Of a DNA stretch of 64,000 bases, positions 11,557-62,797 are shown piece after piece. Each line of letters starts with the position of its first letter. Within the stretch, counting starts at the first letter, position 1. Where the stretch lies: positions 6,944,001 through 7,008,000 of the forward strand of contig JAGIQG010000040.1 in NCBI GenBank assembly GCA_024679065.1. The letters are read 5' to 3'. Below the pieces are notes generated by a model. It searched no databases and was not told the origin of the DNA. It was given only the letters and a program-made list of their open reading frames with translations. The stretch is from Sphyrna mokarran (Eukaryota). A program made the translations under genes and the position numbers.

Positions 11557-13100
11557 TAGAACACAGAACATAGAACATTACAGCGCAGCACAGGCCCTTC
11601 GACCCTCGATGTTGCGCCGACAAATGCAACCAATCTAATGGCCCTCTAACTTAAACTATTCCAATGCTATCCATATGCCTATCCACTGACCATTTGATCG
11701 CCCTTAAACTTGGCGAGTCCACAACTGCTGCAGGCAGGACATTCCACGCCCTTACTACCCTCTGATAAGGGAACCTACCTCTGACATCCGTCCTATATTT
11801 ATCACCCCTTAATATAAAGCGATGTCTCCTCGTGTTATCCATCTCCACCCGAGGAAAAAGGCTCTCACTATCCACCCTATTTAACCCTCTGATCATCTTA
11901 TATGTCTCAAGGTCACCTCTTAGCCTTCTTCTAATGAAAATAAAATCAAGTCCTTCAGCCTTTTCTCATAAGACCTTCCCACCATACCAGGCAACATCCT
12001 GGTAAACCTCCTCGTCACCCTTTCCAATGCCTTCACATCTTTTTTATATTGTGGCGACCAGAACTGTATGCAATATTCCAGTGCGGCCGCACAGAGTTTT
12101 GTACAGTTGCAATATGAAGTCTCGACTCCGAAATTCAATCCCTCTACCAATAAAAGCTAACATACTATACGCCTTCTTAACAACCTTATCAACTTGCGTA
12201 CCAACTTTCAGGGATCTATGCACATGTGCATCGAGATCTCTCTGCTCGTCAACACTACTGAGTCCTATATTCCGTACACATATTACTCTTACCAAAGTGA
12301 ATCACCTCACACTTTTCCACATTAAACTCCATTTGTTATCTCTCGGCCCAGCTCTGCAGCATATCCATGTCCCTCTGCAAACTGTAATATCCATCTTCAC
12401 TGTCTACGACTCCTCCGACTTTGGTGTCGTCAGCAAATTTACTAACCCGTCCCCCTACACACTCATCCAGGTCATTTATAAAAATGACAAACGGCAGTGG
12501 CCCCAAAACAAATCCCTGAGGTATATCCCTTGTAACTGAACTCCCATCAACCACCACCCTCTGTCTTCTATCAGCTAGCCAATTCCTAATCCAAATTGCT
12601 AAATCACCCTCAATCCCATGCATCTGCATTTTCTGCACTAGCTTTCATGGGGAACTTTATGAAACACTTTGCTAAAATCCATATACAAAACGTCAACTGC
12701 ATTACACTTATCCACCTCTTTGGTCACCTTTTCAAAAAACTCGGTAAGGTTTGTGAGGCATGACCTACCCTTCACAAAACCGTATTGAATATCCCTAATC
12801 AATTCATTTCTCTCTGGATGACTATAAATCCTATCCTTTATAATTCTTTCCAAAACTTTGTCCACAACAGAAGTAAAGCTCACTGGTCTATAATTCCCAG
12901 GATGGTCTTCACTCCCCTTCTTGAACAAGGGGACATTTGCTATCCTCCAGTCTTCCGGCACTATACCTGTATCCAACGATGATATGAGGTTCAAAGCCAA
13001 AGGCTCTGCAATCTCCTCTCTAGCCTCGCAGAGAATCTTGGGGTAAATCTCATCCGGCCCAAGGGACTTATCTGTTTTCATACTCTCAAGAATAGCTAAC
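11557..13100 (-). mobile_element. CR1 LINE (subfamily C), frameshifted RT
   Basis: ORFs 11651-13102 with GPD.IYP, NYRPVS, GFVKGRSCLTNL, DFSK.F.KVPH, PQG.VLGP, KFADDTK; ATGAA at both flanks. Confidence 0.92.
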
Positions 13101-15705
13101 ATGAATCTGTATAAACTCAGCCAAACACATATTACATCATCGAGGAAAAAAGATAGAGTTCGGAATAATGGAGAGTTAAATGCAGAATGATAACTATACT
13201 TGCATGCGATTCGAAGCAGAATTATGGACGTAGGCTTTACTAGGAATGCATGATAAGATTTTCGAATACTTCACTGAATTAAAAAAAATCTGAACAAAAA
13301 AGTCGTCACGTAGCATGTTCATGGATAACGAAGCTCACCTAATCTTACATTGGCCAAGAATTTTCAGCTGAGCATCAGGTGCCAAAACATTTAATTCTAC
13401 CATTTCAACATTAGGCTACCCATGGTATTCTTACACTGCTGCCCTATAAATAAGATTGTGAGGGAAAAAAACAATGTCTGGTGCGAAGAATTGCTGCAAA
13501 ATTCCATATTTCAGAGGGATCTAATTGTTCTGGTGCATAAGCCCCAAAACCTATTAATTAAGAAGACTAAAGCAAATGCATAATTTAACAAGAGAGGAAA
13601 TGAACTTATAAAGATATTATGCTTCAATTATGCAAGGCATTGGTGAGACTGCGTTTTGGATAATGTGAGCAGTTTTCGTCTTCTTATTTACACAAGGATA
13701 TAAAAGGGTTGGAACAGGTTTGCTGGATTTATTCCTGGAATGAATGGGCTTTCTTATGAGGCTAAAGTCGAAATAATATATCTGTTTCCAGCGGAGTTTA
13801 GAATTGTGGGCTGTGACTTGTTTGAAGTACTTACGATTCTAAATAGTATTCACACAGTAGACGTGGAAAAGATGAAACCCTGAGTCTTATGGGTGAACCT
13901 ATAGCTAGAGGGCCATCGTTTTCAAATTAGTGGTCTGCTTTTTTGGGACAGAATGAAGTGATTGTTTTTCTATTTGCAGCTTTGGAATTCTCTGCTCAGA
14001 AAGGAGAGGAAGCCAGGTAATTGAATATGTCCAAGGCAGAAGTGGATACATTATTGTTCGAAAAGAGGCCAATAGTTATGGGAACGTGGCACTTAAAACA
14101 CAAAGTGAATCACCAGCATATTTCCAGTGGTGGAACAGGCTCGAAGGATTGAATTGCCTGCCTCTGCTCCTGTATCAAACTTGCTTCAAGAACGTGATTT
14201 AACACCCATAGATATTAAAGATCAAAGTATTATCACAGTGAGAGTGCCAAAATAAAGTTAAGAGAATAGCAGAGGAAATATTTCAACTCTTCCAGAAATT
14301 TCAATACAGTAATTCACCCGAAAAATTCCCCTGTGTACTGGTCGTCAACAAAAATGGAGAGGTGTAAAAGTATCCACCTCTAACATCAATATGATATCTA
14401 CCTGTACATTCCCCAACAAAAATATGTCCCACCACTTATCAGGACATGTTGACTTCTGACAGCGGCAATTAACTTAAGACTATTAGAAATAGGAACAGAC
14501 CGTTCTTCATGTCTGCACCATCATTTAATAATATTAAAGCTGAACTCACACAATCCTCGTTCCTGTTTTATCGCTGTCATCCTTAATTCCCACACTTACT
14601 TAGAATCTATCAATCAGAGTCTTGAAAATGCTCAACTATTAGGTTTCCGCAGCTTCTTGGGGTAAAGAATTACAAAGATCCACAAGCCTTTGAGAAAATA
14701 AATTCTTCCCCAACTCCGATTTCCATGATCACAACTTTATCCTGCAACTATGTCCTTGGTCCTCTACTCTCCCATAAGTGCAAATATTCTCCGAAAATTT
14801 ACCCCACCTAACCCCTCAAGAATAACTTTGTTTCTTGAGTTCTGTTCGGGAAATCAAAGATTGCTGATGACTCCACACGCCTTCCATTCACCAATCAACC
14901 CAAGCTTAATGTGGATGTTAATGTAGTTCTTGAACGAAACATTAAACATGTTGGGCGAATTTTACGGATTCACAACTTTAATTCTGAATTCACTCGATAA
15001 TTTTTTCTAAACTTAATGATGTACCATTGACACCCCCTAACAATTGAACACTCATTTCTTTTTATTTCATCTAACCTTTCCTCCTTTTTAATATTTTAAA
15101 ACATTCTTATTGTATCGACCCGTACTCAAAATTCTTTTGAAGGAAATTGAACCATTCGCTTATTTTTATTTATTTAACCTCTTGCTTGTGAAATCTCTGA
15201 TGAACCAGAGTGACAGCAGTTTGACGAGGTTGCAGAACAAATACTTTTACAGCTCGCTTAATAATAGAGAGGTCATTTCAGAAAACACCATAACAGCTTT
15301 CGAGTTCAAAAAAAATAAATTGATAAATATGTAACTAAAATTTGCAATGCTGACCGTAAAGATGCGGAATTGTGAAAATGATGCTTTTTAGGATATATTC
15401 TCCATTATGGAACAATATCTACATTTACCCAAAAAGTGCAACAATGTAAACTCTACTTAAGTTCTATCTAACGGAGTCATCCTGCTTCGAAAGAAGTTCA
15501 TAATTTGTCATGTGTAACAAGGAATAGACAATTTATATTGGTTTCCCCAAAGACATTTGCATCTTTGAATGAATAAAACTATAAGTTATTTCTTGTGCAG
15601 TATTTAAAGCCTCAATCTCCACACCATATTAACGGACCAAACATCACTTAATCCCCCTGTTCATTCCAAAGACCGAACAAAGCTCTATTTAGGGTTTCAT
15701 TGCTA

Positions 15706-15744: not shown

Positions 15745-16730
15745 ATATATATTGTTTACTTACCTCGAAGTTACTGATTGAATGACATCTGTCACTTTTT
15801 AGCTTGTTGCTCCATTTAAAAATGGCCTTGGTCTTCGAATTATTAACAATGTGAATTTACTTTTATTTTCGCTGTCACACCCATCTTTTCGAACACTCTC
15901 CATTGCACAACCGCATAAAACAACTAATATTTATCTTTATCCAGCACTTTCAACATAATGAATGTCCCAACAACTATCAGCAGATCCTTATGAAAGACAT
16001 AATAGGACTGAGACAAATAAGGAAATATTAGATCAATTTATGAAAATCCTGATAAAGAGGCAGCATATAATAATTGTATTAAAATTGGAAAGCAAAGTCG
16101 TGTAGAAGATAAGTAAACGGCTTATATTGCAAAAATCGTGGAGCAATTAAAACTGGGAGAGTACTGGAGGCTACAATTAGAGATGAATATATTGTGGATG
16201 AGCGTTTGGTAGCATTACAACGATACAAAAATCTGAAGCACTAGAAGGTTTTGTAAACCACGATGAGAATATTGAAATTACAGCCGTTGTAGGAGAATGG
16301 GATCTTATGCCTGTTTACGATATGGACATTAGATGCTTACAATACCTTAAATTTACTGTGGTTATTGTGTGGGAGATCGGAACACATTGAAATGATCGAA
16401 TATGGAAGGTAAGGGAGACAACGATGAGGGGTCCATGCAAGGCAAGCTGAAATGTACGTGAATCCAGCTGCTTTAGGATTGCAAATAGAGGGTCTTAGTG
16501 ATATTGCAAATACGAAGTGGAAAACTCCTTAGTGATTTAATTTATCATCAGGGTTGCAAAGAGACATTTTTAATGTAAACTTGCTGCAAGGTAAAGGACA
16601 CGCTCTGACGGTAGGTAAGGGATTTTTGGAACAAGGTTGATTAAAAAATTTGGATATATTGAGTAGACGAACATGGCTAAGAACAGATTCCTGTGGAATA
16701 TTTTATTAACACATATGCAATCGAACTGAG

Positions 16731-17496
16731 ACTTTGGCAGGAACAATAAATGTGTAGAGTATAGGGCTAATGGTAGGGCTCTTAATAGTGTTGAGGAACA
16801 GAAGGATCTTGGTGTATGTGTCAATAGATCCCTGAAAGTAGGCAGTCAAGTGGATAAAGTTGTTAAGAAGGCATATGGAGTCTTAGCTTTTATTGGTAGG
16901 GGGATTGAATTTAGGAGCCGCAGCATCATGTTGCAACTGTACAAAACTCTAGTGCGGCCGCACTTGGAGTATTGTGTGCAGTTCTGGTCCCCACATTATA
17001 AGAAAGATGTGGAGGCATTGGAGAGGGTACAGAGGAGGTTTACCAGGATGTTGCCTGGTATGGAGGGCAGGTCCTATGAAGAGAGGTTGAAGGATTTGAG
17101 GTTGTTTTCGTTAGAAAGGAGGCGGCTAAGAGGGGATCTTATTGAAGCATATAAGATGATTAGAGGTTTAGATAGGGTGGACAGTGATAGCCTTTTTCCT
17201 AGGATGGAGAAAGCTAGCACGAGGGGACACAGCTTTAAATTAAGGGGTATGAGTTATAGGACGGATATCAGAGGTAGGTTCTTTACTCAAAGAGTGATTA
17301 GGGAGTGGAATGCCCTGCCTGCAGCTGTTGTAGATGCGCCAAGTTTGGTGGCGTTTAAGAGGTTAATTGATAAGTATATGGAAGAGAAGGGAATGGTTTA
17401 GTTTGGAGGGGCATTGCTTTTTATTTTGGTCGGCACAACATCGAAGGCCGAAGGGCCTGTTCTGTGCTGTAATGTTCTATGTTCTATGTTCTATGT
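16731..17496 (+). mobile_element. Very young 5'-truncated CR1 LINE (subfamily A)
   Basis: Uninterrupted ORF 16850-17401, translation identical to other A copies over the shared region, (GTTCTAT)n tail. Confidence 0.95.
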
Positions 17497-18384: not shown

Positions 18385-18425
18385 CCGCCCTATGCAAATT
18401 CACCCTGTTTCTTAAGGTTTATAAA
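18385..18425 (+). promoter_or_regulatory. V promoter: GC box CCGCCC (18385-18390), octamer ATGCAAAT (18392-18399), TATA box TATAAA (18420-18425)
   Basis: Exact motifs 90-130 bp upstream of the leader ATG, in the order typical of Ig heavy-chain promoters. Confidence 0.8.
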
Positions 18426-18516: not shown

Positions 18517-18559
18517 ATGCATATTTTCTGGGCTGCACTCCTTTTAACGTGGTTATCAA
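18517..18559 (+). CDS. IgNAR: IgNAR leader exon (signal peptide MHIFWAALLLTWLS, phase 1)
   Basis: ATG at 18517, hydrophobic peptide, donor A|GTAAGT at 18560; splices in frame to the V exon (N-AFS-AYVDQTP). Confidence 0.93.
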
Positions 18560-18699
18560 GTAAGTTTCTTTCAGAAGAAAAAATATGTGTCAACTGGATA
18601 AAATTGGGTGGCTGCGCATACATTGTGGAAAATTCTTTGCCTTTAAGTTCTTGTATTGTTTCAGACAAATAATTCATTTCGTATCTTTTCTCCATACAG

Positions 18700-18975
18700 A
18701 TGCCTTCAGTGCATATGTCGATCAAACACCACGGTCGGCAACTAAAAAAACAGGCGAATCTCTGACAATCAACTGCGTCCTAAGGGATGCTAGCTGTCCC
18801 TTGTGTGAAACAAGGTGGTTTCGGAAAAATCCTGGTTCAACAAATTGGGAACGCATTACCATTGGCGGCCGATATGTTGAAAACGTTAACAAGGGAAGCA
18901 AGTCGTTTTCTCTGCAAATCAACGACTTAACAGCTGAAGACAGTGTCACATTTTACTGTAAAGCTGGAGAAGACT
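18700..18975 (+). CDS. IgNAR: IgNAR V (VNAR) exon: AFS-AYVDQTPRSATKKTGESLTINCVLRDASCPLCETRWFRKNPGSTNWERITIGGRYVENVNKGSKSFSLQINDLTAEDSVTFYCKAGED
   Basis: Acceptor tccatacAG at 18698-18699; VNAR hallmarks VDQTP, GESLTINC22, W36, GGRYVE, KSFSL, YC83KA; no stop codons; followed directly by an RSS. Confidence 0.97.
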
Positions 18976-19013
18976 CACAGCAATAAGATTGAACTTTCAG
19001 TCATACAAAAATA
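18976..19013 (+). other. V 3' RSS (23-class, 22-bp spacer)
   Basis: CACAGCA (18976-18982) + 22 bp + ACAAAAATA (19005-19013). Confidence 0.92.
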
Positions 19014-19202: not shown

Positions 19203-19279
19203 TGTTTTTGAACAGGGCTGGACCACTGTGTGGATATTCCCACAGCAATCGAGAAGACAGTTCCCGTCATACACAAACT
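19203..19279 (+). other. D1 segment TGGATATTCC (19231-19240) with 12/23 RSSs
   Basis: TGTTTTTGA-12-CACTGTG | D | CACAGCA-23-ACACAAACT; reading frames WIF / GYS / DI. Confidence 0.95.
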
Positions 19280-19406
19280 ATCGTCTGAATTGTTTTTTTA
19301 ACTGTAGAACATTTTAACTGTTTCTCAACTGGTTTTGCAGGAAGTTATTAATGAATAATCTGGAGGTTTAGCACGTTTAGTCGAAAGAAAACAATGAAGA
19401 AAGGAA

Positions 19407-19476
19407 CATTGTCATGTTCTGCGAAGTTCGAGGTGGCTCAGAACAATAAGATTGAACTTCCGGTTCTGCAAAAGTG
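19407..19476 (+). pseudogene. Fossil V 3' end plus decayed V-RSS (duplication relic)
   Basis: TTC TGC GAA GTT CGA GGT GGC T CAGAACA ataagattgaactt.. GCAAAAGTG aligns without gaps (offset 463) to the V end TAC TGT AAA GCT GGA GAA GAC T CACAGCA ataagattgaactt.. ACAAAAATA; heptamer has lost CAC. Confidence 0.8.
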
Positions 19477-19641
19477 AAGACAGGATAATATTGTACGCTC
19501 TTCTGGCTGAAACTATATTTTATTTGTTGATCGTATTCTGAAATGGGGACGTTTCTAAACATCTGGTGACATTTCGAGGATCATAAATCCCAGCATTTCA
19601 AATGTGGATGCGCAGCAACTGTATTTAAAACCCAGGTAAGC

Positions 19642-19718
19642 TGTTTTTGAACGGGGCTAGACCACTGTGTGGCTGTTATCACAGCAATCAAGCAGACGGT
19701 TCCTGTCACACACAAACT
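19642..19718 (+). other. D2 segment TGGCTGTTAT (19670-19679) with 12/23 RSSs
   Basis: TGTTTTTGA-12-CACTGTG | D | CACAGCA-23-ACACAAACT; frames WLL / GCY / AV. Confidence 0.95.
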
Positions 19719-19915
19719 ATCTTCAGATTTGTTTTCTTTAACAGTGGAACAAGTTAACTGTTTCTCCACTGGTTTAGCGAGAAGTTATTAATGAATATTT
19801 TGGAAGGATAGCATATTTAGTGGAATGAAAACAATGAAAAAAAAGAACATTGAGATATGAAGTCAAATCGGAGTAGACGTCTCGAGCTAAGAGGCTTGGC
19901 TGACTATACATGACA

Positions 19916-19994
19916 AGTTTTTGCACTGATCTCTGCGGCTGTGTGGGTGTGGGGACCACATTAACGAATCATAGATTCTCTTAGTACAAAAACT
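19916..19994 (+). other. D3 segment TGGGTGTGGGGAC (19944-19956) with 12/22 RSSs
   Basis: AGTTTTTGC-12-GGCTGTG | D | CACATTA-22-ACAAAAACT; frames WVWG / GCGD / GVGT. Confidence 0.88.
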
Positions 19995-20307
19995 AATCCT
20001 ATACTCCTGAAGACAAAACAAACAGATTTTACTTTCTGAGTGGCTACGGTAGTTCATAGTTAAACAACTGCTGTCCTCCTCAGACACCGATTGATGCATT
20101 GCAACATTTTTTCTGTTTATTTTGGCAATTATGTGTATAAATATTTGAATCACATTTATAACACATGGAGGTTTCTCCATGATTTGGACAAGTCCTTATG
20201 AGCGAGAGACACTGTTCGGGTTCCAATGTGAAGGGAACGATTTGCGCCAATTTCCAACGGATATTTTGGAATGATTGAAGCATTTTCTGCGAAGATTTGA
20301 ATAATGG

Positions 20308-20375
20308 ATTTATTGTGCTGATGTGAAGTGATGTGCAGCTATGGTGACACGATGATGCGGGCCACAACAAGAACC
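20308..20375 (+). other. D4 segment CAGCTATGGTGA (20336-20347) with 12/12 RSSs
   Basis: ATTTATTGT-12-TGATGTG | D | CACGATG-12-ACAAGAACC; the only segment with a 3' 12-RSS, which is required to join the J 23-RSS; frames QLW* / SYG / AMV. Confidence 0.85.
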
Positions 20376-20728: not shown

Positions 20729-20772
20729 TAACTGGTATGATGGGAGCGGCACCGTGCTGACTGTGAATCCTG
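20729..20772 (+). CDS. IgNAR: IgNAR J segment NWYDGSGTVLTVNP(G)
   Basis: G-x-G-T-x-L-T-V motif with the VNAR-type YDG start instead of WG; donor G|GTAAGT at 20773; no Cys in FR4. Confidence 0.95.
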
Positions 20773-21483
20773 GTAAGTGAAGTTTCTTGCTACTTCAATA
20801 AGATTTTTTCGTGCAAAAAAGGTTAAGAAGAACTAATGTTTTCATTAATATTGACTAAAGAAGTGAAATAACATTCATAGCTCTTTTTCAGTTCCTGACT
20901 TAATAGACTGTCTCTATTGATTTGACTGGAATTTATAACTATCTAGAATATAGTGACTGAAAATATTAGATTTATAAAGGTAACTTAGCTGTCAACAAAC
21001 ACTTTAAAGACTTGATTGGGAAGGTGATGCTGGTTTTTAGAGTTAAAACGGAACCAATTATACAATTTTCATCCTGACCGACCTGATAACTTGTAAAATG
21101 AACTGATATTATTTCTAACCCAAAACAAATCTATGGAATATTGTGATGAGGAGTGATCTCTATAATCATGTAATACTTGAAATGTATTGTTTCATAAAAT
21201 GCTAGTTACAGATTTATATGAGCTATTAAACACTTCTCATTAGTCATGACATGGAAAGTAACATTAACGTCTGATCGGGCCCCGAAAATATGTTGGCCAA
21301 TGATTTCTGTATATTTCAGAATTTGTTCAAAGGGAAAAAGCAAATGATCTAGTAAGAGACTGACTGGTCATGGCATTATTCTATTCCTGTAGCGCCAGGA
21401 ATGCACCAGTTGTTCAGCAACATATCTGACAAGTTTATTCCACTCTCCCCTGCCTCAACACCCTCAGCTCCTACCCCGTTTTA

Positions 21484-31452: not shown

Positions 31453-31580
31453 GTAAGCACAGTTTGTTGGAATATTTTTTTTTTCAAAAATCCGGCCACA
31501 ATATCCAAAAAAGAATATACTGCCGAGCAGATTCAAGTAGGATCCAGCAAATCCAAAATGTTTGGGATCCAGCAAATCCA

Positions 31581-32417
31581 GGATGCAAGACTGGGCAGAG
31601 AAGTGGCAGATGGACTTCAACGCGGATAAATGTGTTGTGGTCCATTTTGGCAGATCCAACGGGATGAATGAGTACACTATCAAAGGTAGGAGACTTAGAT
31701 GTGTGGAAGAGCAGAGGGATCTTGGGGTCCGGGTCCATAAGACTCTCAAATCGGCCTCCCAGGTGGAGGATGTGGTTAAGAAAGCTTACGGTGTACTGGC
31801 CTTCATTCATCAAGGGATTGAGTTCAGGAGTCAGGAGGTAATGCTGCAGCTTTATAGGACCATTGTCAGACCACACTTGGAGTACTGTGCGTAGTTTTGG
31901 TCGCCTCACTATAGGAAGGACGTGGAAGCTATTGAAAGGAGGCAGAGGAGATTTACAAGGATGTTGCCTGGATTGGGAGGCATGCCTTATGAAGACAGGT
32001 TGAGGGAGCTGGGACTGTTCTCCCTGGAGAGACGAAGGTTGAGAGGCGACCTGATAGAGGTTTACAAGATGTTGAGAGGAATAGATAGGGTGGACTTTCA
32101 GAGACTATTTCCCAGGGCTGAAATGGTCGTGACGAGAGGGCACAGATTTAAGGTGCAGGGAAGCACGTACAGAGGGGATGCTAGGGGAAAGTTTTTCACT
32201 CAGAGGGTGGTGAGTGAATGAAATCGGCTGCCGTCGGTGGTGGTCGAGGCAAAGTCGCTGGGGTCTTTTAAAAGACTTCTGGATGAGTATATGGGATCCA
32301 ATGGGATTGGGGGTTATAGATAGGTCTACGGCTGGGTAGGTTTTTAATGTGTTCAGCACAACTTGTGGGCCGAAGGGCCTGTTTGTGCTGTAGTGTTCTA
32401 TGTTCTATGTTGTATGT
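31581..32417 (+). mobile_element. CR1 LINE (subfamily D) ~130 bp downstream of the C3 donor
   Basis: ORFs 31562-31894 and 31922-32221 RT C-terminus; TSD ATGTTTGG at 31558 and 32418. Confidence 0.93.
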
Positions 32418-33834: not shown

Positions 33835-35370
33835 CAGATCATGGAACAGGACAGCATCGTATAGGCACTTCGGCCCTCGATGTTGTGCCGAGCTATGTCC
33901 AAACTCAAGAACAAACTATCCCACTCCTTATCATTCCGGAGTGCTCCATGTGCCCATCCAATAACCACTTGAAAGTTCCTAAAGTGTCCGATTCCACTAT
34001 CACAGCAAGCAGTCCATTTCACACCCCAACCACTCTCTGAGTAAAGAATATACCTCGGACATCCGTCCCATACCTCCCATCTGAGTAAAGAATATACCTC
34101 GGACATCCATCCTATATCTCCCTAGTAAAAGCTACATCCATCCGAGGAAATAGTCTCTGCACGTCCACTCTATCTATTCCCCTCAACATCTTATAAACCT
34201 CTATTAAGTCGCCTCTCATCCTCCTCTATTCTAAAGAGAAAAGCCCCAGCTCCTTCAGCTTTTCCTCATAAGTCCTCTCCTCCAAACCAGGAAGCATCTC
34301 CTCTGCTAAACCTACTCTGCACTCTCTCCAATGCTTCCATATCCTTCTTAAAGTGAGATGACCAGAACTGCCCACAAATATTCCAAATGTGCTCTCACTA
34401 AGGTCCGGTATAGTTGCACCTGGGTTCTTAAACTCAAACCTTCTGTAAATGAACGCTAACGCACTATGAGCCTTCTTCATGGCTTTATCCACTTGAGTGG
34501 CAATCTTCTGAGATCTTTGGATATGAACATAGAACATAGAACATTACAGCGCACTACAGGCCTTTCGGCCCTCGATGTTGCGCCGGCCAGTGGACCCTCT
34601 AACTTAAACTATTCCAATATCATCCATATGCCTATCCACCGAACATTTGAATGCCCCCAAAGTAGGCGAGTCCACAACTGCTGCAGGCAGGGCATTCCAC
34701 GCCCTCACCACCCTCTGTGTGAAAAACCTGCCTCTGACATCCGTCCTATAACTACCACCTCTTAATTTAAAGTTATGTCCCCTCGTGTTGGTCATCACCA
34801 TCCGAGGAAAAAGGCTCTCACTATCCACCCTATCCAATCCCTTGATCATCTTATACGCCTCAATTAGGTCACCGCGTAACCTTCTTCTCTCTAATGAAAA
34901 TAACCTCAGGTCCCTCAGCCTTTCCTCATAAGGCCTTCCCACCATACCAGGCAACATCCTGGTAAACCTCCTCTGCACCCTTTCCAATGCTTCCACATCT
35001 TTCTTATAATGCGGCGACCAGAACTGTACGCAATACTCCAAGTGCGGCCGCACCAGAGTTTTGTACAGTTGTAACATAACCTCACGGCTCCTAAATTCAA
35101 TCCCTCTACCAATAAAAGCTAACACACCGTACGCCTTCTTAACAACTTTATCAACCTGGGTGCCAACTTTCAAAGAGCTATGTACTTGTACCCCAAGATC
35201 CCTCTGCTCGACAACACTATTAAGGGTCTTTCCATTAGCCCTATATTTCATATGCCTGTTATTCCTACCAAATGAATCCCAAGATCTCTCTACTCCTCCA
35301 CATTCCTTAGAACCCTGCCGTTGATCCTCTAATCCACAATGTCCTACCAAAATGAATCAGCTCACACTTA
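33835..35370 (-). mobile_element. Older CR1 with a nested younger CR1 (34525-35273, subfamily C)
   Basis: ORFs 34226-34537 and 34604-35350; host sequence resumes after 35276; ATGAA at both junctions. Confidence 0.88.
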
Positions 35371-39637: not shown

Positions 39638-40020
39638 TTGGTGCGATGAATAGTCCTAAAGTGTACGTTCTGCCACCATCAGCGGCCGAAATTGACTCAG
39701 AAAATACGGCAACTTTGATGTGTACAGCCTCTGGCTTTTATCCTGCTGAAATTTATATCGCTTGGTTGGCCAATGACACGCTTTTAGATTCGGGTTTCCC
39801 CAGTCAACCAGTGAGCGAGGAAGGAAATCGTTCCAACTTCATTGCCAGCAGATTGAGGCTCACAGCGACGGAGTGGAACACTGGCACAACTTATTCCTGT
39901 TTAGTGGGACACCCGTCCCTTGAAAGGAATTTAATCCGAAGTATAAATAACTCTTATGGTAAACCTACTTTAGTTAACGTTTCGCTTGCCCTAACTGACA
40001 GTATTAAATCTTGTGTATAG
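39638..40020 (+). CDS. IgNAR: IgNAR C5 exon plus secretory tailpiece GKPTLVNVSLALTDSIKSCV*
   Basis: tttttacAG acceptor; C1-set motifs; internal donor TATG|GTAAAC at 39959 for the membrane form; tailpiece with NVS sequon and penultimate Cys; TAG 40018-40020. Confidence 0.96.
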
Positions 40021-43390: not shown

Positions 43391-46216
43391 TTTTTATATT
43401 ATTACTATCTCTCCATGTGCACGTGTAGATTAAGTTTTCTGATTTCAGTTGCCCAAGTCCGACAGAATAGAGTAGAATAGTGCTTCTATTCGTCCTCAAG
43501 TATAATCTCTTAATTTACAAGAACTACAAATCACCATTATTTTGCCAAGTATTCATTCACTTAAGCTCTTGTCCGCTTATATGACTAGGCAACAATTTGG
43601 AGCCTTTTACAATCTTAAAATGCTGTAAAAATGTAACTTGATGATGTTGTGCATTGAAGTACTGATATATGCAAGCTCCAAATGTCAAATTCGGAACTGT
43701 GCATTGACTTTGAATGTATCACCCTGTCGTTAAAGGCCCCAATTCTATCGTGGATAGTTTCTGACTCAGAAGTTGTTACATTCAACATCATATCCAACAT
43801 TTTGCTCTTTCATTAATGCAGCTCGTCACTCTTTGTGTTGCTACAGCCATAATAGTGCTGCGTTTCAATTGAAACATTTCTTCCTGGCCTGAACCGATTG
43901 TTCAGATGTATGTTGAATATTCTTTTGGTGAATTACTGGAGAAGCGATCCCTCCCAATCCCAGTGTTAGATACACTGACATCCCATTAATTGTAACATGG
44001 CTTTATTTTTGACACGTCTTATGAGAGGTAAATTTGCTGTATGGATTTAACTAAAATGGATTTAAAATGAAATCGTTTGCTTAAAAACCTTCGGCAACCA
44101 GTGAATGACGACCTATGAAGCAGCAATATATTTATCTGTTGCCATGATCGTCAACCTGGTTAAACCCACATGATGTAAAAGAGAATACGGCATTTGTCAG
44201 TTTATGCAATGGCAAGGGGAGGCATCAAGAGCTGAATATATCAAGAAAATCAGCTGCTTGACTCCTTGCCGCAAACAGTACAGCTGCTTCCCATTCCCTT
44301 GGTGCATCAGTTCATTATTGATTCCATGATGTTGGAAAATACACTGATACCAATGGCATATGTCAGTACATCTCTTTACCAGCCAATGCATGAATATCTC
44401 TCGCATTCTTAAGATGCGGATTAAACTTTGCAGACAAGAAATTATGCAAATCAGGTTTCATTGCATTACTCCCTTCTGCAGAGTATATTCTGATGGAACT
44501 TAATGTGTTGGCTCCAAAACAGTACAGGAATCCATTAATTCGTCAATGTCAGCTAAATTGTAGAAAAATGCATGTGTGCTGAGGTTGGAGAACGTGTGGA
44601 AGTGACTGGCTGTGTCTACCCGCCTTAACTGAGGCAGAGTTAAACAGAGATTGCTGAGATACTGTGCCTCCAATAACTGTTGCTGTTTGTGCTATGGTGT
44701 GTCTCCATGCTGGGGTATGTCATGCTGTGTCTAATGGGTTTGGTAGCTTTACGTGCTGAAATTTCATTGAGTGGAAATTATCCAGCATAGAATAAGGATA
44801 TTTGGTCCATCTATCCATGCCACATAGTTTGGGTGAAGTAACCAGCTGTGTATTTTACATAGTGACAAACGCCTACTTGACAAAAGTTCAACTATTCCAA
44901 TATAGTGAATGCAATATGTATCTGTGTAATTACGTTGATTTATATCTGGCTGAATAGGATACACAGCTGTTTTACTCTAGTACTGATCCATCATCAGGTC
45001 GCTGGGCTTCACTCTGTTTCATTCGTTAACACTATTGAAGGGCATGTATGGCCCATTGTCGAATATGTCTAGTAGGAGCCACAGTCACGTTCATCTTGTA
45101 TTATTGGAAGGTCTTGTTTTGAGGTGGCATTTACCCTTTCTGACACTGTTATTTAGAACATGTGGCATGCCAGTTTTTTATGTACCAGAAGATATTAAAT
45201 TATATAATAAATTTCAAACAAAATGACAAAATAGAATCTGCTGTAGGGCAATTCATGCTAAGTTTACGACACTTTACAAATAACTGTAAACGTTAATGCA
45301 AACATAAAACTATCACACCCTCCACAAAATATTGACCAGCATTATCCAAAACAGCAGTTTGAAAAAAAAATCGACTTTGATCATAGTGATGCCCTCAGGA
45401 GATTGAGAGAATTGTTGATGTCCTTTGTAATTCAGAAATCCATAAAAATGATAGTGTCCACACCTGAGAATTTTTCAATCACTGAATACTAGAGCTACCG
45501 TAGAGAAGCAAATGGATTCCATAAGAACTCACCAACCCAGTAAACAGAGAACTATAACTGTAATTTGACAGAACAGCCTTACAAAGTCTGGTCGTATGGC
45601 AATTCTAATATTATGAATAACAAATAATTCCAATGGCAATGGGCATCGTTGAACACCATTGTGCAGAAGTAGACATACTTTGCTGGTTTGCAGTTGCGTG
45701 AAAGAATTTATCCTATGAGTGACTTTTGCCATAAAATGTCAATAACGTAACAGATGCGAATATAATCTACACAAATTAGAAACCCTCAAATCTTCAGCTG
45801 AAAAATGACTCATTTCCAGTTGTAATATTCTTGTCTTAAGTTAGCATGTGAATATGCTAAGTTAACATGCAAAAGATTTGAGCCCCGCTCAACCCTTCTG
45901 TTCAAAATGGAACCGAGTTCAGCTTGTGATTATGACTGTTGAAAAAATAAGGAAGTAAAATGTAACACCTGTGATTGGCTGTGTTCACTGGAATATGGGA
46001 AGGATAACGCATGTATCATTTAAAATAATTCATCTGCCCTGTGTGTCCTATTAGGCTTCAATTATTGCCAACCAGCACGTATCTCCATGTTTTCTGAAAT
46101 CTATCTCGATCGTGTTTGGAGCTTTTCATGTTCTATTATTTCAGTGTACAATGCAATATATCTAGTCTATTTTCAACAGGATTTAATTGACAAAAACATT
46201 CATCTATTGATTATAG

Positions 46217-46374
46217 AAATCCCTCCAATAAAGGACTTAGTGGATAACGAAGTGGTAGTGGAAGATGGATTGGAAAACATCGATGAAGATCTCAGCACTT
46301 CATCAACAATAGTTGCTTTCGTCACCTTATTCGTTTTCAGTATGATGTACAGCGCATATGTGACAGCTGTCAAG
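46217..46374 (+). CDS. IgNAR: IgNAR TM1 exon EIPPIKDLVDNEVVVEDGLENIDEDLSTSSTIVAFVTLFVFSMMYSAYVTAVK
   Basis: Acidic spacer plus CART transmembrane motif (F..LF..S..YS..VT); phase-1 acceptor ttatAG 46215-46216; donor AAG|GTAATA 46375. The 5' boundary is less certain than the 3' boundary. Confidence 0.88.
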
Positions 46375-48145: not shown

Positions 48146-49305
48146 ATGGACTTTAGTAAGGCTTTTGATAAGGTGGCCCATGGAAGACTTCTACAGAAAA
48201 TGCAGATGTGTGGAATAGAGGGTGATTTAGCTAATTGGATTAGAAATTGGCTGGCAGATAGAAGACAGAGGGTGGTGGTTGATGGGAGATATTCATCGTG
48301 GAGTTCGGTGACGAGTGGTGTGCCTCAGGGGTCTGTTTTGGGGCCCCTGCTGTTTGTAATTTTTATAAATGATCTGGATGAGGGTATTGAGGGATGGATC
48401 AGTAAATTTGCAGATGATACTAAAGTTGGTGGAGTGGTAGATAGTGAAGAGGGGTGTTTTAGTTTACAGAGTGACTTGGACAAGTTGCAGAGCTGGGCCG
48501 AGAGGTGGCAAATGGAGTTTAATGTGGAAAAGTGTGAGGTAATGCACTTTGGCAGGAACAATAAATGTGTAGAGTATAGGGCTAATGGTAGGGCTCTTAA
48601 TAGTGTTGAGGAACAGAAGGATCTTGGTGTATGTGTCAATAGATCCCTGAAAGTAGGCAGTCAAGTGGATAAAGTTGTTAAGAAGGCATATGGAGTCTTA
48701 GCTTTTATTGGTAGGGGGATTGAATTTAGGAGCCGCAGCATCATGTTGCAACTGTACAAAACTCTAGTGCGGCCGCACTTGGAGTATTGTGTGCAGTTCT
48801 GGTCCCCACATTATAAGAAAGATGTGGAGGCATTGGAGAGGGTACAGAGGAGGTTTACCAGGATGTTGCCTGGTATGGAGGGCAGGTCCTATGAAGAGAG
48901 GTTGAAGGATTTGAGGTTGTTTTCGTTAGAAAGGAGGCGGCTAAGGGGGATCTTATTGAAGCATATAAGATGATTAGAGGTTTGGATAGGGTGGACAGTG
49001 ATAGCCTTTTTCCTAGGATGGAGAAAGCTAGCACGAGGGGACACAACTTTAAATTAAGGGGTATGAGTTATAGGACGGATATCAGAGGTAGGTTCTTTAC
49101 TCAAAGAGTGATTAGGGAGTGGAATGCCCTGCCTGCAGCTGTTGTAGATGCGCCAAGTTTGGTGGCGTTTAAGAGGTTAATTGATAAGTATATGGAAGAG
49201 AAGGGAATGGTTTAGTTAGGAGGGGCATTGCTTTTTATTTTGGTCGGCACAACATCGAAGGCCGAAGGGCCTGTTCTGTGCTGTATTGTTCTATGTTCTA
49301 TGTTC
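48146..49305 (+). mobile_element. Very young CR1 LINE (subfamily A) inserted into a SINE (47925-48125 / 49312-49398)
   Basis: ORFs 48146-48973 and 48970-49215 separated by a 1-bp deletion; TAAACG at both flanks. Confidence 0.95.
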
Positions 49306-56090: not shown

Positions 56091-56800
56091 GTCCAATAAG
56101 GGGCATACACGCGACGGGTCGTGAGAGGGCTGCTCTTGGATTTTTCGAGACTTGCCTAGTGCTTCACATCGTTAGTGTACGCTTGAACTGGACCAGTTGA
56201 TGGGCAACACAATGACTATAACTGTTGCTGTGCAGATACATGGATTTGGGCCGCTTTCTGTGGGAGTTTGCGCATTCTCTCCGTGCTTGCGTGGGTTTCC
56301 TCAGGGCGCTCCGGTTTCCTCCTACACCCTAAAGATATGCTCTTAGGCTGATTGGCAAAACAAATTCTCCCTAAATTGTATCGCTAATTTAGTTCCAATG
56401 CAGATTTCTATGAACATAGACAAGGATCATGAGTGGAAGTGGGAACATCGGGGTGGCGGCATGGGCTTTTCGGGCTGAAGGGCCTGTTTCCCGTGCTGTG
56501 TTGTTCTTTTAAACCTTACTCCTTGCACCTTAAACCCATGCCCGCGAGTAATTGACTCTTACGCATGGGAAAACGTTTCTGACTATCCACTCTATCCGTG
56601 CCTCTCATAATCTTGTAGACTTCTTTCTAATCACCCCTCAACCACGACATTAGAGTGAAAACAATCCAAATTTCTCCAACCTCTCCTCATAGCTAATGCT
56701 CTCCATACCAGGCAGATCCTGGTAAATCTTTTCTGTATCCTCTCCAAAGCCTCCACATCTTTCTGGCAGTGTGGCGACCAGGATTGAACACCACAGGATT

Positions 56801-57685
56801 GTGGTAGATAGTGAAGAGGGGTGTTTCAGTTTACAGAGTGACTTGGACAAGTTGCAGAGCTGGGCCGAGAGGTGGCAAATGGAGTTTAATGTGGAAAAGT
56901 GTGAGGTAATGCACTTTGGCAGGAACAATAAATGTGTAGAGTATAGGGCTAATGGTAGGGCTCTTAATAGTGTTGAGGAACAGAAGGATCTTGGTGTATG
57001 TGTCAATAGATCCCTGAAAGTAGGCAGTCAAGTGGATAAAGTTGTTAAGAAGGCATATGGAGTCTTAGCTTTTATTGGTAGGGGGATTGAATTTAGGAGC
57101 CGCAGCATCATGTTGCAACTGTACAAAACTCTAGTGCGGCCGCACTTGGAGTATTGTGTGCAGTTCTGGTCCCCACATTATAAGAAAGATGTGGAGGCAT
57201 TGGAGAGGGTACAGAGGAGGTTTACCAGGATGTTGCCTGGTATGGAGGGCAGGTCCTATGAAGAGAGGTTGAAGGATTTGAGGTTGTTTTCGTTAGAAAG
57301 GAGGCGGCTAAGAGGGGATCTTATTGAAGCATATAAGATGATTAGAGGTTTAGATAGGGTGGACAGTGATAGCCTTTTTCCTAGGATGGAGAAAGCTAGC
57401 ACGAGGGGACACAGCTTTAAATTAAGGGGTATGAGTTATAGGACGGATATCAGAGGTAGGTTCTTTACTCAAAGAGTGATTAGGGAGTGGAATGCCCTGC
57501 CTGCAGCTGTTGTAGATGCGCCAAGTTTGGTGGCGTTTAAGAGGTTAGTTGATAAGTATATGGATGAGAAGGGAATGGTTTAGTTAGGAGGGGCATTGCT
57601 TTTTATTTGGTCGGCACAACATCGAAGGCCGAAGGGCCTGTTCTGTGCTGTATTGTTCTATGTTCTATGTTCTATGTTCTATGTT
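56801..57685 (+). mobile_element. Very young CR1 LINE (subfamily A) nested in an antiparallel older CR1 (56511-56800 / 57686-57712)
   Basis: Uninterrupted ORF to 57583, (GTTCTAT)n tail, host resumes CCAAATGCGGCCTAACTAA. Confidence 0.94.
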
Positions 57686-61144: not shown

Positions 61145-62470
61145 AACATAGAACATAGAACATTACAGCACAGAACAGGCCCTTCGGCCTTCGATGTTGC
61201 GCCGACCAATATAAAAAGCAACGCCCCTCCAAACTAAACCATTCCCATCTCTTCCATATACTTAAACGCCACCAAACTTGGCGCATCTACAACCGCTGCA
61301 GGCAGGGCATTCCACTCCCGAACCACCCTTTGGGTAAAGAACCTGCCTCTGATATCCATCCTATAACTATCACCCCTTAATTTAAAGCTGTGTCCCCTCG
61401 TGCTAGCTTTTTCCATCCTAGGAAAAAGGCTATCACTGTCCACCCTATCTAAACCTCTAATCATCTTATATGTTTCGATCAGGTCCCCTCTTAGCCTCCT
61501 CCTTCCTAACGAAAACAACCTCAAATCCCTCAGCCTCTCCTCATAAGACCTGCCCTCCATACCAGGCAACATCCTGGTAAACCTCCTCTGTACCCTCTCC
61601 AATGCCTCCACATCTTTCTTATAATGTGGGACCAGAACTGCACACAATACTCCAAGTGCGGCCGCACTAGAGTTTTGTACAGTTGCAACATGACGTTGCG
61701 GCTCCGAAATTCAATCCATCTACCAATAAAAGCCAAGACTCCATATGCCTTCCTAACAACCTTCTCGACCTGACTGCCTACTTTCAGGGATCTATGCACA
61801 TACACACCAAGATCCCTCTGTTCATCTAGACTACTAAGAATCCTACCATTTGCCCTATACTCTACACATTTATTATTTCTGCCATAGTGCATTACCTCAC
61901 ACTTTTCCACATTAAACTCCATTTGCCACCTCTCGGCCCAGCTCTGCAACTTGTCCAAGTCCCTCTGCAAACTATAACACCCCTCTTCACTATCTACCAC
62001 TCCACCGACTTTAGTGTCATCTGCAAATTTACTAATCCATCCTTCAATACCCTCATCCAGATCATTTATAAAAATTACAAACAGCAGGGGCCCCAAAACA
62101 GACCCCTGAGGTACACCACTTGTCACCGAACTCCAAGATGAATATCTCCCATCAACCACCACCCTCTGTCTTCTATCTGCTAGCCAATTCCTAACCCAAT
62201 TAGCTAAATCACCCTCTATCCCATACATCTGCATTTTCTGCAGAAGTCTTCCATGGGCCACCTTATCAAACGCCTTACTAAAGTCCATATATACCACATC
62301 AACCGCCTTACCCCCATCCACCTCCTTAGTCACTTTTTCAAAAAACTCAATGAGGTTAGTAAGGCACGACCTACCCTTCACAAAACCATGCTGACTATCT
62401 CCAATCAATTCATTACTCTCTAAATAACTATAAATCCGATCCCTAATTATTCTCTCCAACACTTTGCCCA
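61145..62470 (-). mobile_element. Young CR1 LINE (subfamily B), inserted into the 5' end of a SINE
   Basis: ORF 61530-62471 (313 aa RT), 1-bp frameshift, 15-bp deletion near the 3' end; ATGTA at both flanks. Confidence 0.95.
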
Positions 62471-62476
62471 AATGTA

Positions 62477-62797
62477 GGTAGCACAGTGGTTAGGTCTGCT
62501 GCTCTACAGCTCCAGGTCGATTCCCGGCTTGGGTCACGGCCTGTACGGATGTTGCACATTCGCCTCGTGTCGGCGCGGGTTTCCTCTGGGTTCTCCAGTT
62601 TCCATTCTCAGTCCAAAGATGTACGGGTTAGGTTGACTGGCCTTGCTAAAAATTGTCTCTTAGAGTCCTGAAATGCGTAAGTGAGATGGATTGGCGCTAA
62701 ATATCTCGGGAAATCGGGGTAGAGCCTGGGTGGTTCTGTGGTTGGTGCAGACTCGATGGACCAAATGGCCTCCTTCTGCACTGTAGGGATTCTATGA
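62477..62797 (+). mobile_element. HE1/V-SINE-like SINE
   Basis: GGTAGCACAGTGGTTAG head, core, GGATTCTATG tail. Confidence 0.88.

Follow-up and report, generated by a model that had tools for sequence, protein, structure and literature searches.

Types I to IV of the shark VNAR domain are set out in PMC12907318, PMC6312525, PMC11641339, PMC12865624, PMC8692893, and PMC4622739, and a further 'type V' vNAR was put forward in 2019 on the basis of no fewer than 10 isolates from Heterodontus francisci, the horn shark (Cabanillas-Bernal et al., PMC6576789). As given in the accessible text of that paper, type V carries Cys residues at positions 29 and 32 of CDR1, a pair of Cys residues in CDR3, and the canonical Cys22 and Cys83, with none in FR2 or FR4; its bond arrangement was left for further study, and a synthetic library built on the type V frame gave zero functional binders. 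The word 'germline' is absent from the main text of the paper (PMC6576789). One clone of the Japanese topeshark was classed as type V on two CDR3 cysteines (PMC10672104, available part), and the accessible text of a 2026 VNAR review does not use the term 'type V' (PMC12907318). In the open-access literature searched, outside of which lie subscription journals and patents, type V is thus far based on the expressed clones of one paper, and no germline type V locus appears in titles or abstract openings.

We analyzed a stretch of 64,000 nucleotides of the Sphyrna mokarran genome (hereafter the window; G000:C994:6944001–7008000), in which the IgNAR elements described below lie on the forward strand. 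A VNAR V exon at 18700..18975, with mature residue 1 at 18711 and 85% identity to the Triakis scyllium IgNAR V, reads TGT CCC TTG TGT at 18795–18806, that is, C-P-L-C at residues 29–32 counting from the mature start. Cys29 (18795..18797) is the CDR1 cysteine usual in types II and III, and Cys32 (18804..18806) is a second CDR1 cysteine, which defines type V and lies one base away from the Tyr codon seen in most relatives' contigs. The preliminary description of the window had reported the two TGT codons beside C22 and C83, together with the lack of Cys in FR2 and J, and both observations hold: the codons stand in the V-exon frame and in contigs of two read runs (X1 and X2), the canonical cysteines are intact (C22 at 18774, C83 at 18957), and neither the FR2 translation nor the open frame of J (20729–20773) contains Cys. 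It had further held that such a germline pattern fits none of types I to IV cleanly, and so implied that the pattern was undescribed. This is correct in that the locus belongs to none of types I, II, III, and IV/IIb, but the cysteines of type V lie at exactly positions 29 and 32 in the published account (PMC6576789, accessible text), and the claim that the pattern fits no known type was therefore rejected. The locus matches type V in three of its four sequence features, namely the canonical Cys22 and Cys83, Cys29 and Cys32 in CDR1, and cysteine-free FR2 and FR4, whereas the fourth, the CDR3 pair, was seen once.

The window contains a complete and intact IgNAR cluster with leader, V, four D, J, C1–C5, and secretory and transmembrane exons. 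A putative octamer-like promoter element was read from the sequence 5' of the leader (18392..18399). The leader exon (18517..18559) is open, matches the Triakis IgNAR leader, and is spliced from 18559 to 18700 in run X2, the leader–V intron (18560–18699) being bounded by GT..AG. A recombination-signal scan placed the V signal, with a 22-base spacer, at 18976..19013, and four D segments follow: D1 (19231..19240; 12/23 signals), which encodes Cys in no frame; D2 (19670..19679; 12/23 signals), which reads G-C-Y in frame 2; D3 (19944..19956; 12/22 signals), which reads G-C-G-D in frame 2; and a putative D4 (20336..20347; 12/12 signals, the 5' one degenerate), which lacks Cys. The J segment (20729..20773) has a 23-spacer signal, no Cys, and a GT donor 3' of it. 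The constant exons were located by tblastn with Triakis IgNAR and by their splice sites, as C1 (28755..29066; 78%), C2 (30747..31046; 87%), C3 (31135..31452; 90%), C4 (38884..39204; 93%), and C5 with the secretory tail (39638..40020; 88%); all five are open and bounded by GT-AG. A transmembrane exon with approximate ends (46180..46374) was found by tblastn with a skate IgNAR transmembrane tail (E 6.5e-8). The single V, the D segments, the single J, the five C exons, and the recombination signals together identify an IgNAR cluster. The V domain aligned without gaps to solved shark VNARs and lacks the CDR2 region as VNARs do, and the structure predicted for the V exon alone, a model that covers neither CDR3 nor strand G and gave no distances, has the VNAR fold (TM 0.91 to solved VNARs).

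IgNAR clusters have been described with three D segments (PMC4622739, PMC8692893, in the parts available), as against four here and five in a sister cluster. The extra D segments (19231–20347; sister, L031:2109–3686) seem to be products of a tandem unit of ~440 bases, and between D1 and D2, at ~19440–19480, the V 3' signal region recurs in degenerate form, probably left over from the duplication by which the D segments became more numerous. Long open reading frames also occur in the window at 12641–13270, 16730–17398, 31487–32104, 34607–35356, 48146–48970, 56726–57580, and 61533–62489; most of these seven presumably represent LINE-type reverse transcriptase fragments.

Both cysteine codons were compared with read runs X1, X2, X3, X4, X7, and X23 (6 of 23 runs). 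The contig of DNA run X1 over 18681–18873 showed 0 differences at a depth of 21.2, although X1 is possibly the source of the assembly and hence no independent check; in run X2, which bears the same organism label but comes from a different sample and study, the contig over 18760–18840 showed 0 differences at a depth of 39.3. Neither run contained a variant contig at the Cys29 or Cys32 codon. In the raw-read run X23, of which ~3/100 was sampled (bin depth 0.46), no window-type read was listed across the codons. Because both codons are unchanged in X1 and X2, a sequencing error or a private allele, either of which the preliminary description had named as grounds for dismissing C32, is unlikely.

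Run X2, which we only guess to be RNA, none of the listed runs being recorded as such, and which also includes unrearranged stretches, contains the leader–V splice, four V–J joints, and one J-to-C1 loose end, and the spliced joints are absent from the DNA run X1; the cluster is rearranged and spliced, and we read it as transcribed. One spliced and V–J-joined X2 contig carries 49 differences in 275 bases (18%). It lacks the diagnostic base of the sister cluster at 18747, is aligned through 18806, and diverges directly after. No change is listed in either Cys codon, where two of the six differences within 18760–18806 are listed, and, since the other four are unlisted, retention of both cysteines is probable, short of proven. 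Probably, then, this contig is a hypermutated transcript that keeps both cysteines, and it may alternatively be a third, unassembled allele. The loss of Cys32 from expressed clones, the other outcome foreseen as fatal to the earlier claim, was accordingly not encountered, since one transcript with many mutations probably retains both cysteines. As for an artefact, be it an assembly error, a rare allele, or a pseudogene, one further sample only is informative if X1 is the assembly source; against this, two samples from two studies gave zero-difference contigs, every exon is open with GT-AG borders, and spliced and rearranged molecules exist, so that we regard an artefact as scarcely credible. 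Sequencing error and pseudogene were rejected on these same grounds, the zero-difference contigs, the open and properly bordered exons, and the spliced and joined molecules.

The pattern is rare among the proteins compared. Two cysteines between C22 and W36 were found in none of 38 other VNAR proteins (36 parsed by script and 2 by eye; the set is partly redundant and many members are engineered), and two CDR1 cysteines in none of seven displayed alignments to solved VNAR structures; Cys32 is absent from the solved VNAR sequences compared. Among the matches of the protein searches, neither a VNAR bearing a CDR1 cysteine pair nor a type V sequence from the horn shark turned up for comparison.

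Possible partners of the CDR1 cysteines are encoded by D2 and D3, in one frame each, and by neither D1 nor D4. A loose end in X2 behind 18972 runs in frame, as read by hand, from the 3' end of V into C-T-R-C, a junction built of pieces matching D1, D2, and D3, of whose three motifs two are missing from the D segments of the sister cluster; the letters read for this junction include neither CDR1 nor an in-frame passage into J. Two CDR3 cysteines are thus present in the single readable X2 junction (1/1), the other four V–J joints being without letters. In a crude joining model (geometric trimming, 0–8 random bases, six settings), in-frame junctions contained two CDR3 cysteines in 10–20% of cases, one in 36–42%, and none in 33–51%. 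Set against this model, the one clone with two cysteines favors pairing between the loops ~3–6 fold over a self-closed CDR1. Among the VNARs parsed, many of them engineered or redundant, exactly one CDR3 cysteine accompanies Cys29 in 16 of 17 cases, the exception being a genome-predicted model, and the number of CDR3 cysteines is even in all ten that lack Cys in CDR1 and FR2. The D-segment cysteines were also considered as proof of co-adaptation with CDR1, which was ruled out by the sister cluster as a control: it lacks a CDR1 cysteine, and yet three of its five D segments, and its J as well, encode Cys, so that cysteines in D are no sign of co-adaptation.

On this evidence we lean towards an arrangement in which Cys29 and Cys32 each bond a CDR3 cysteine, forming two CDR1–CDR3 disulfides. 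The preliminary description had listed this among its guesses, and it is the best-supported reading, while the bond pattern itself is one that we infer. A single transition in a type II-like gene would turn Tyr32 into Cys32; B cells whose junction leaves one cysteine unpaired would be eliminated, and expressed clones would consequently be enriched for two CDR3 cysteines; C29 would retain its usual CDR3 partner and C32 would gain a second one; and the bonds would span the loops, stapling CDR3 twice onto CDR1. The exact 29/32 match to type V, whose horn-shark clones bear a CDR3 pair in the published text (PMC6576789), argues for two such bonds, as does the solved camelid bond described below. 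On the other side, the CDR3 pair observed here is also C-x-x-C and could close on itself, and, since its CDR3 pair is what defines the horn-shark type, the association of the CDR1 and CDR3 pairs may reflect ascertainment. The absence of Cys32 from the solved VNARs compared and the lack of functional binders from the type V library also count against two such bonds.

The same observations bear on a C29–C32 bond that would close CDR1 as a ring and leave CDR3 free, with 0 or 2 self-paired cysteines, so that the paratope would resemble type IV and have a rigid CDR1. Known C-x-x-C rings share the i/i+3 spacing seen here with Pro30, the CDR3 pair that was read is likewise C-x-x-C, and the sister cluster encodes CDR3 cysteines despite the missing CDR1 partner; moreover, CDR3s with zero cysteines occur in type I repertoires (PMC6312525, available part). 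However, CDR3 is where the usual partner of C29 resides (PMC4622739, available part), and the joining model produces zero-cysteine CDR3s 1.6–5 fold more often than two-cysteine ones, yet the readable junction has two. The predicted structure, a weak guide as it gave no distances, also depicts CDR1 as a helix-free loop. A closed CDR1 is accordingly, in our estimate, a possible but rather improbable arrangement. Far less likely still is a metal-binding or redox-switch role for the C-x-x-C of CDR1, either by itself or together with the CDR3 pair; the preliminary description had raised both roles for the CDR1 motif. It is the motif alone that suggests this, C-x-x-C occurring in CDR1 and in the single readable CDR3, and no analysis lent the redox-switch or metal-site ideas support; secreted antibodies fold in an oxidizing compartment, the extra cysteines of solved type I and II VNARs are disulfide-bonded in the account available (PMC4622739), and a CDR3 spacing set by random joining would be easier to reconcile with bonds than with a fixed site for a metal.

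The surroundings of the locus in the assembly were surveyed by genome searches, from which counts of clusters are lower bounds, as a cluster could have been missed. At least 30 V matches were listed among 82 candidates of the protein search, and those listed comprise, besides this V, a sister V lying 93 kb upstream (71%), one V that is germline-joined (56%), and a further 27 more distant V segments (41–54%; L004–L030) that we take to be NAR-TCR-like. Several of the distant segments have a long 3' extension before the heptamer, and some are repeated on small contigs. The DNA search of the genome found this V and the sister V only, and X1 over 18681–18873 listed two contigs, one identical and the other with 19 differences, which together point to two rearranging clusters. 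Within this lower-bound search, the assembly yielded no type II cluster of the classical kind. In the sister cluster (L031:1591–4109), CDR1 is without Cys, three D segments out of five and the J segment contain Cys codons, and the junction model gives at least three CDR3 cysteines in 28–49% of cases; its FR3 is unusually diverged. In the germline-joined VNAR-like gene (G000:C994:7566190–7566435, minus strand), V is open straight into J, CDR3 is short, and extra cysteines are lacking; a frameshift and a stop interrupt its C2 exon, and a C1 match above 45% was absent from the 30 kb examined.

Cys32 was also sought in runs of other sharks, X3 (organism B), X4 (organism C), and X7, where the letters assigned below by subtraction come from arithmetic on rounded depths rather than from printed sequences and the kind of run is unrecorded for X3 and X4. 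In X4, seven of eight covering contigs have A at 18805, and one record (record 12; depth 8.09) has, by subtraction, the window letters at all six cysteine bases, reading C-G-L-C. In X3, six of nine contigs have A at 18805 and one has C; one record (record 9; depth 7.84) has, by subtraction, both cysteines with one extra codon before them, and a second contig (depth ~5.3) has G at 18805 with codon 29 ambiguous. The single X7 contig, at depth 2 too thin to count, has Tyr32. X3 covers introns throughout and both X3 and X4 are genome-sized, which makes germline copies likely. A V paralogue with an extra codon just 5' of Cys29 (18790) is shared by X3, X4, and X7, three other sharks; X4 and X7 have Tyr as its residue 32, X3 has His or Cys, and no extra codon stands in the Cys32 copy of X4. 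This pattern suggests repeated gain of Cys32, or gene conversion, starting from a Tyr codon that differs by one transition. A protein tree built from 23 V regions left 14 of its 19 inner branches open and placed the window V in no supported group, and so favored neither a single nor a repeated origin of Cys32.

The proximity of the Tyr codon equally raises the possibility that Tyr32-to-Cys is a near-neutral change in an ordinary type II gene that still functions as type II, C32 being tolerated, occasionally used, or lost by hypermutation. The Tyr codon, one transition off, prevails in the relatives' V contigs (A at 18805 in 7/8 for X4 and 6/9 for X3), residue 32 varies across VNARs, and hypermutation targets the type II CDR1 (PMC4622739, available part). 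We nevertheless judge a near-neutral change unlikely: no variant contig occurs at either codon in X1 or X2, the pair recurs in the horn shark and, by depth subtraction, in organisms B and C, and it is probably kept in the transcript that differs by 18%. Taken at its widest, the view of two CDR1–CDR3 bonds could be extended to propose that type V is a germline IgNAR class and not a horn-shark oddity, acquired on more than one occasion among sharks through one Tyr32-to-Cys change in differing paralogous clusters, in which the CDR1 C-x-x-C and two D-encoded cysteines form a doubly stapled, possibly isomerizing paratope that has wholly replaced type II in Sphyrna mokarran; we put this forward tentatively, and as a whole it may well prove too broad.

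The 29/32 cysteine pattern itself is already known as the published type V. What is new is a germline locus for it, its likely recurrence in other sharks, the apparent absence of a type II cluster in the assembly, and the finding that D2 and D3 each encode Cys and that one junction uses both. With a germline locus at hand, at least one shark can be said to inherit the pattern and not to owe it to hypermutation. Because one of the two rearranging clusters found carries the pattern, counts of CDR3 cysteines from ordinary repertoires would tell the competing bond patterns apart. If real, a CDR3 that is doubly tethered in nature would offer work on single-domain antibodies a new rigid scaffold, though a library on such a frame has failed once. 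The general understanding of shark immunity is unchanged by the finding.

Compared with known systems, the locus resembles the horn-shark type V in Cys29/32, Cys22/83, the lack of Cys in FR2 and FR4, and, as far as the single readable junction goes, two CDR3 cysteines, but that type consists of expressed clones only, whereas here the V lies in an unrearranged locus with its D and J and is closest to Triakis. Type II (Triakis scyllium BAJ20185-8, nurse shark) is the nearest in sequence (85% over V) and shares Cys29, as well as the encoding of CDR3 cysteines by D described in the available part of PMC6312525; it differs in having one CDR1 and usually one CDR3 cysteine in place of the two CDR1 cysteines seen here, residue 32 of the four Triakis chains being Tyr or Asp. 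In nurse shark type I, two extra germline cysteines are matched by an even number of CDR3 cysteines, as in the one junction read here, although those of type I sit in FR2 and FR4, which are both free of them here. Type III has Trp adjoining its CDR1 cysteine, where residue 30 of the present V is Pro, and type IV/IIb has no non-canonical cysteine as against two. Outside the sharks, the camelid VHH 1YC7 has a solved C32–C99 bond between CDR1 and CDR3 (PMC11509895, available part) and is thus a single-domain antibody with a late-CDR1 cysteine, presumably equivalent in position to that of the present V, bonded to CDR3; unlike the two bonds considered here, the camelid domain has one, and it belongs to an unrelated lineage.
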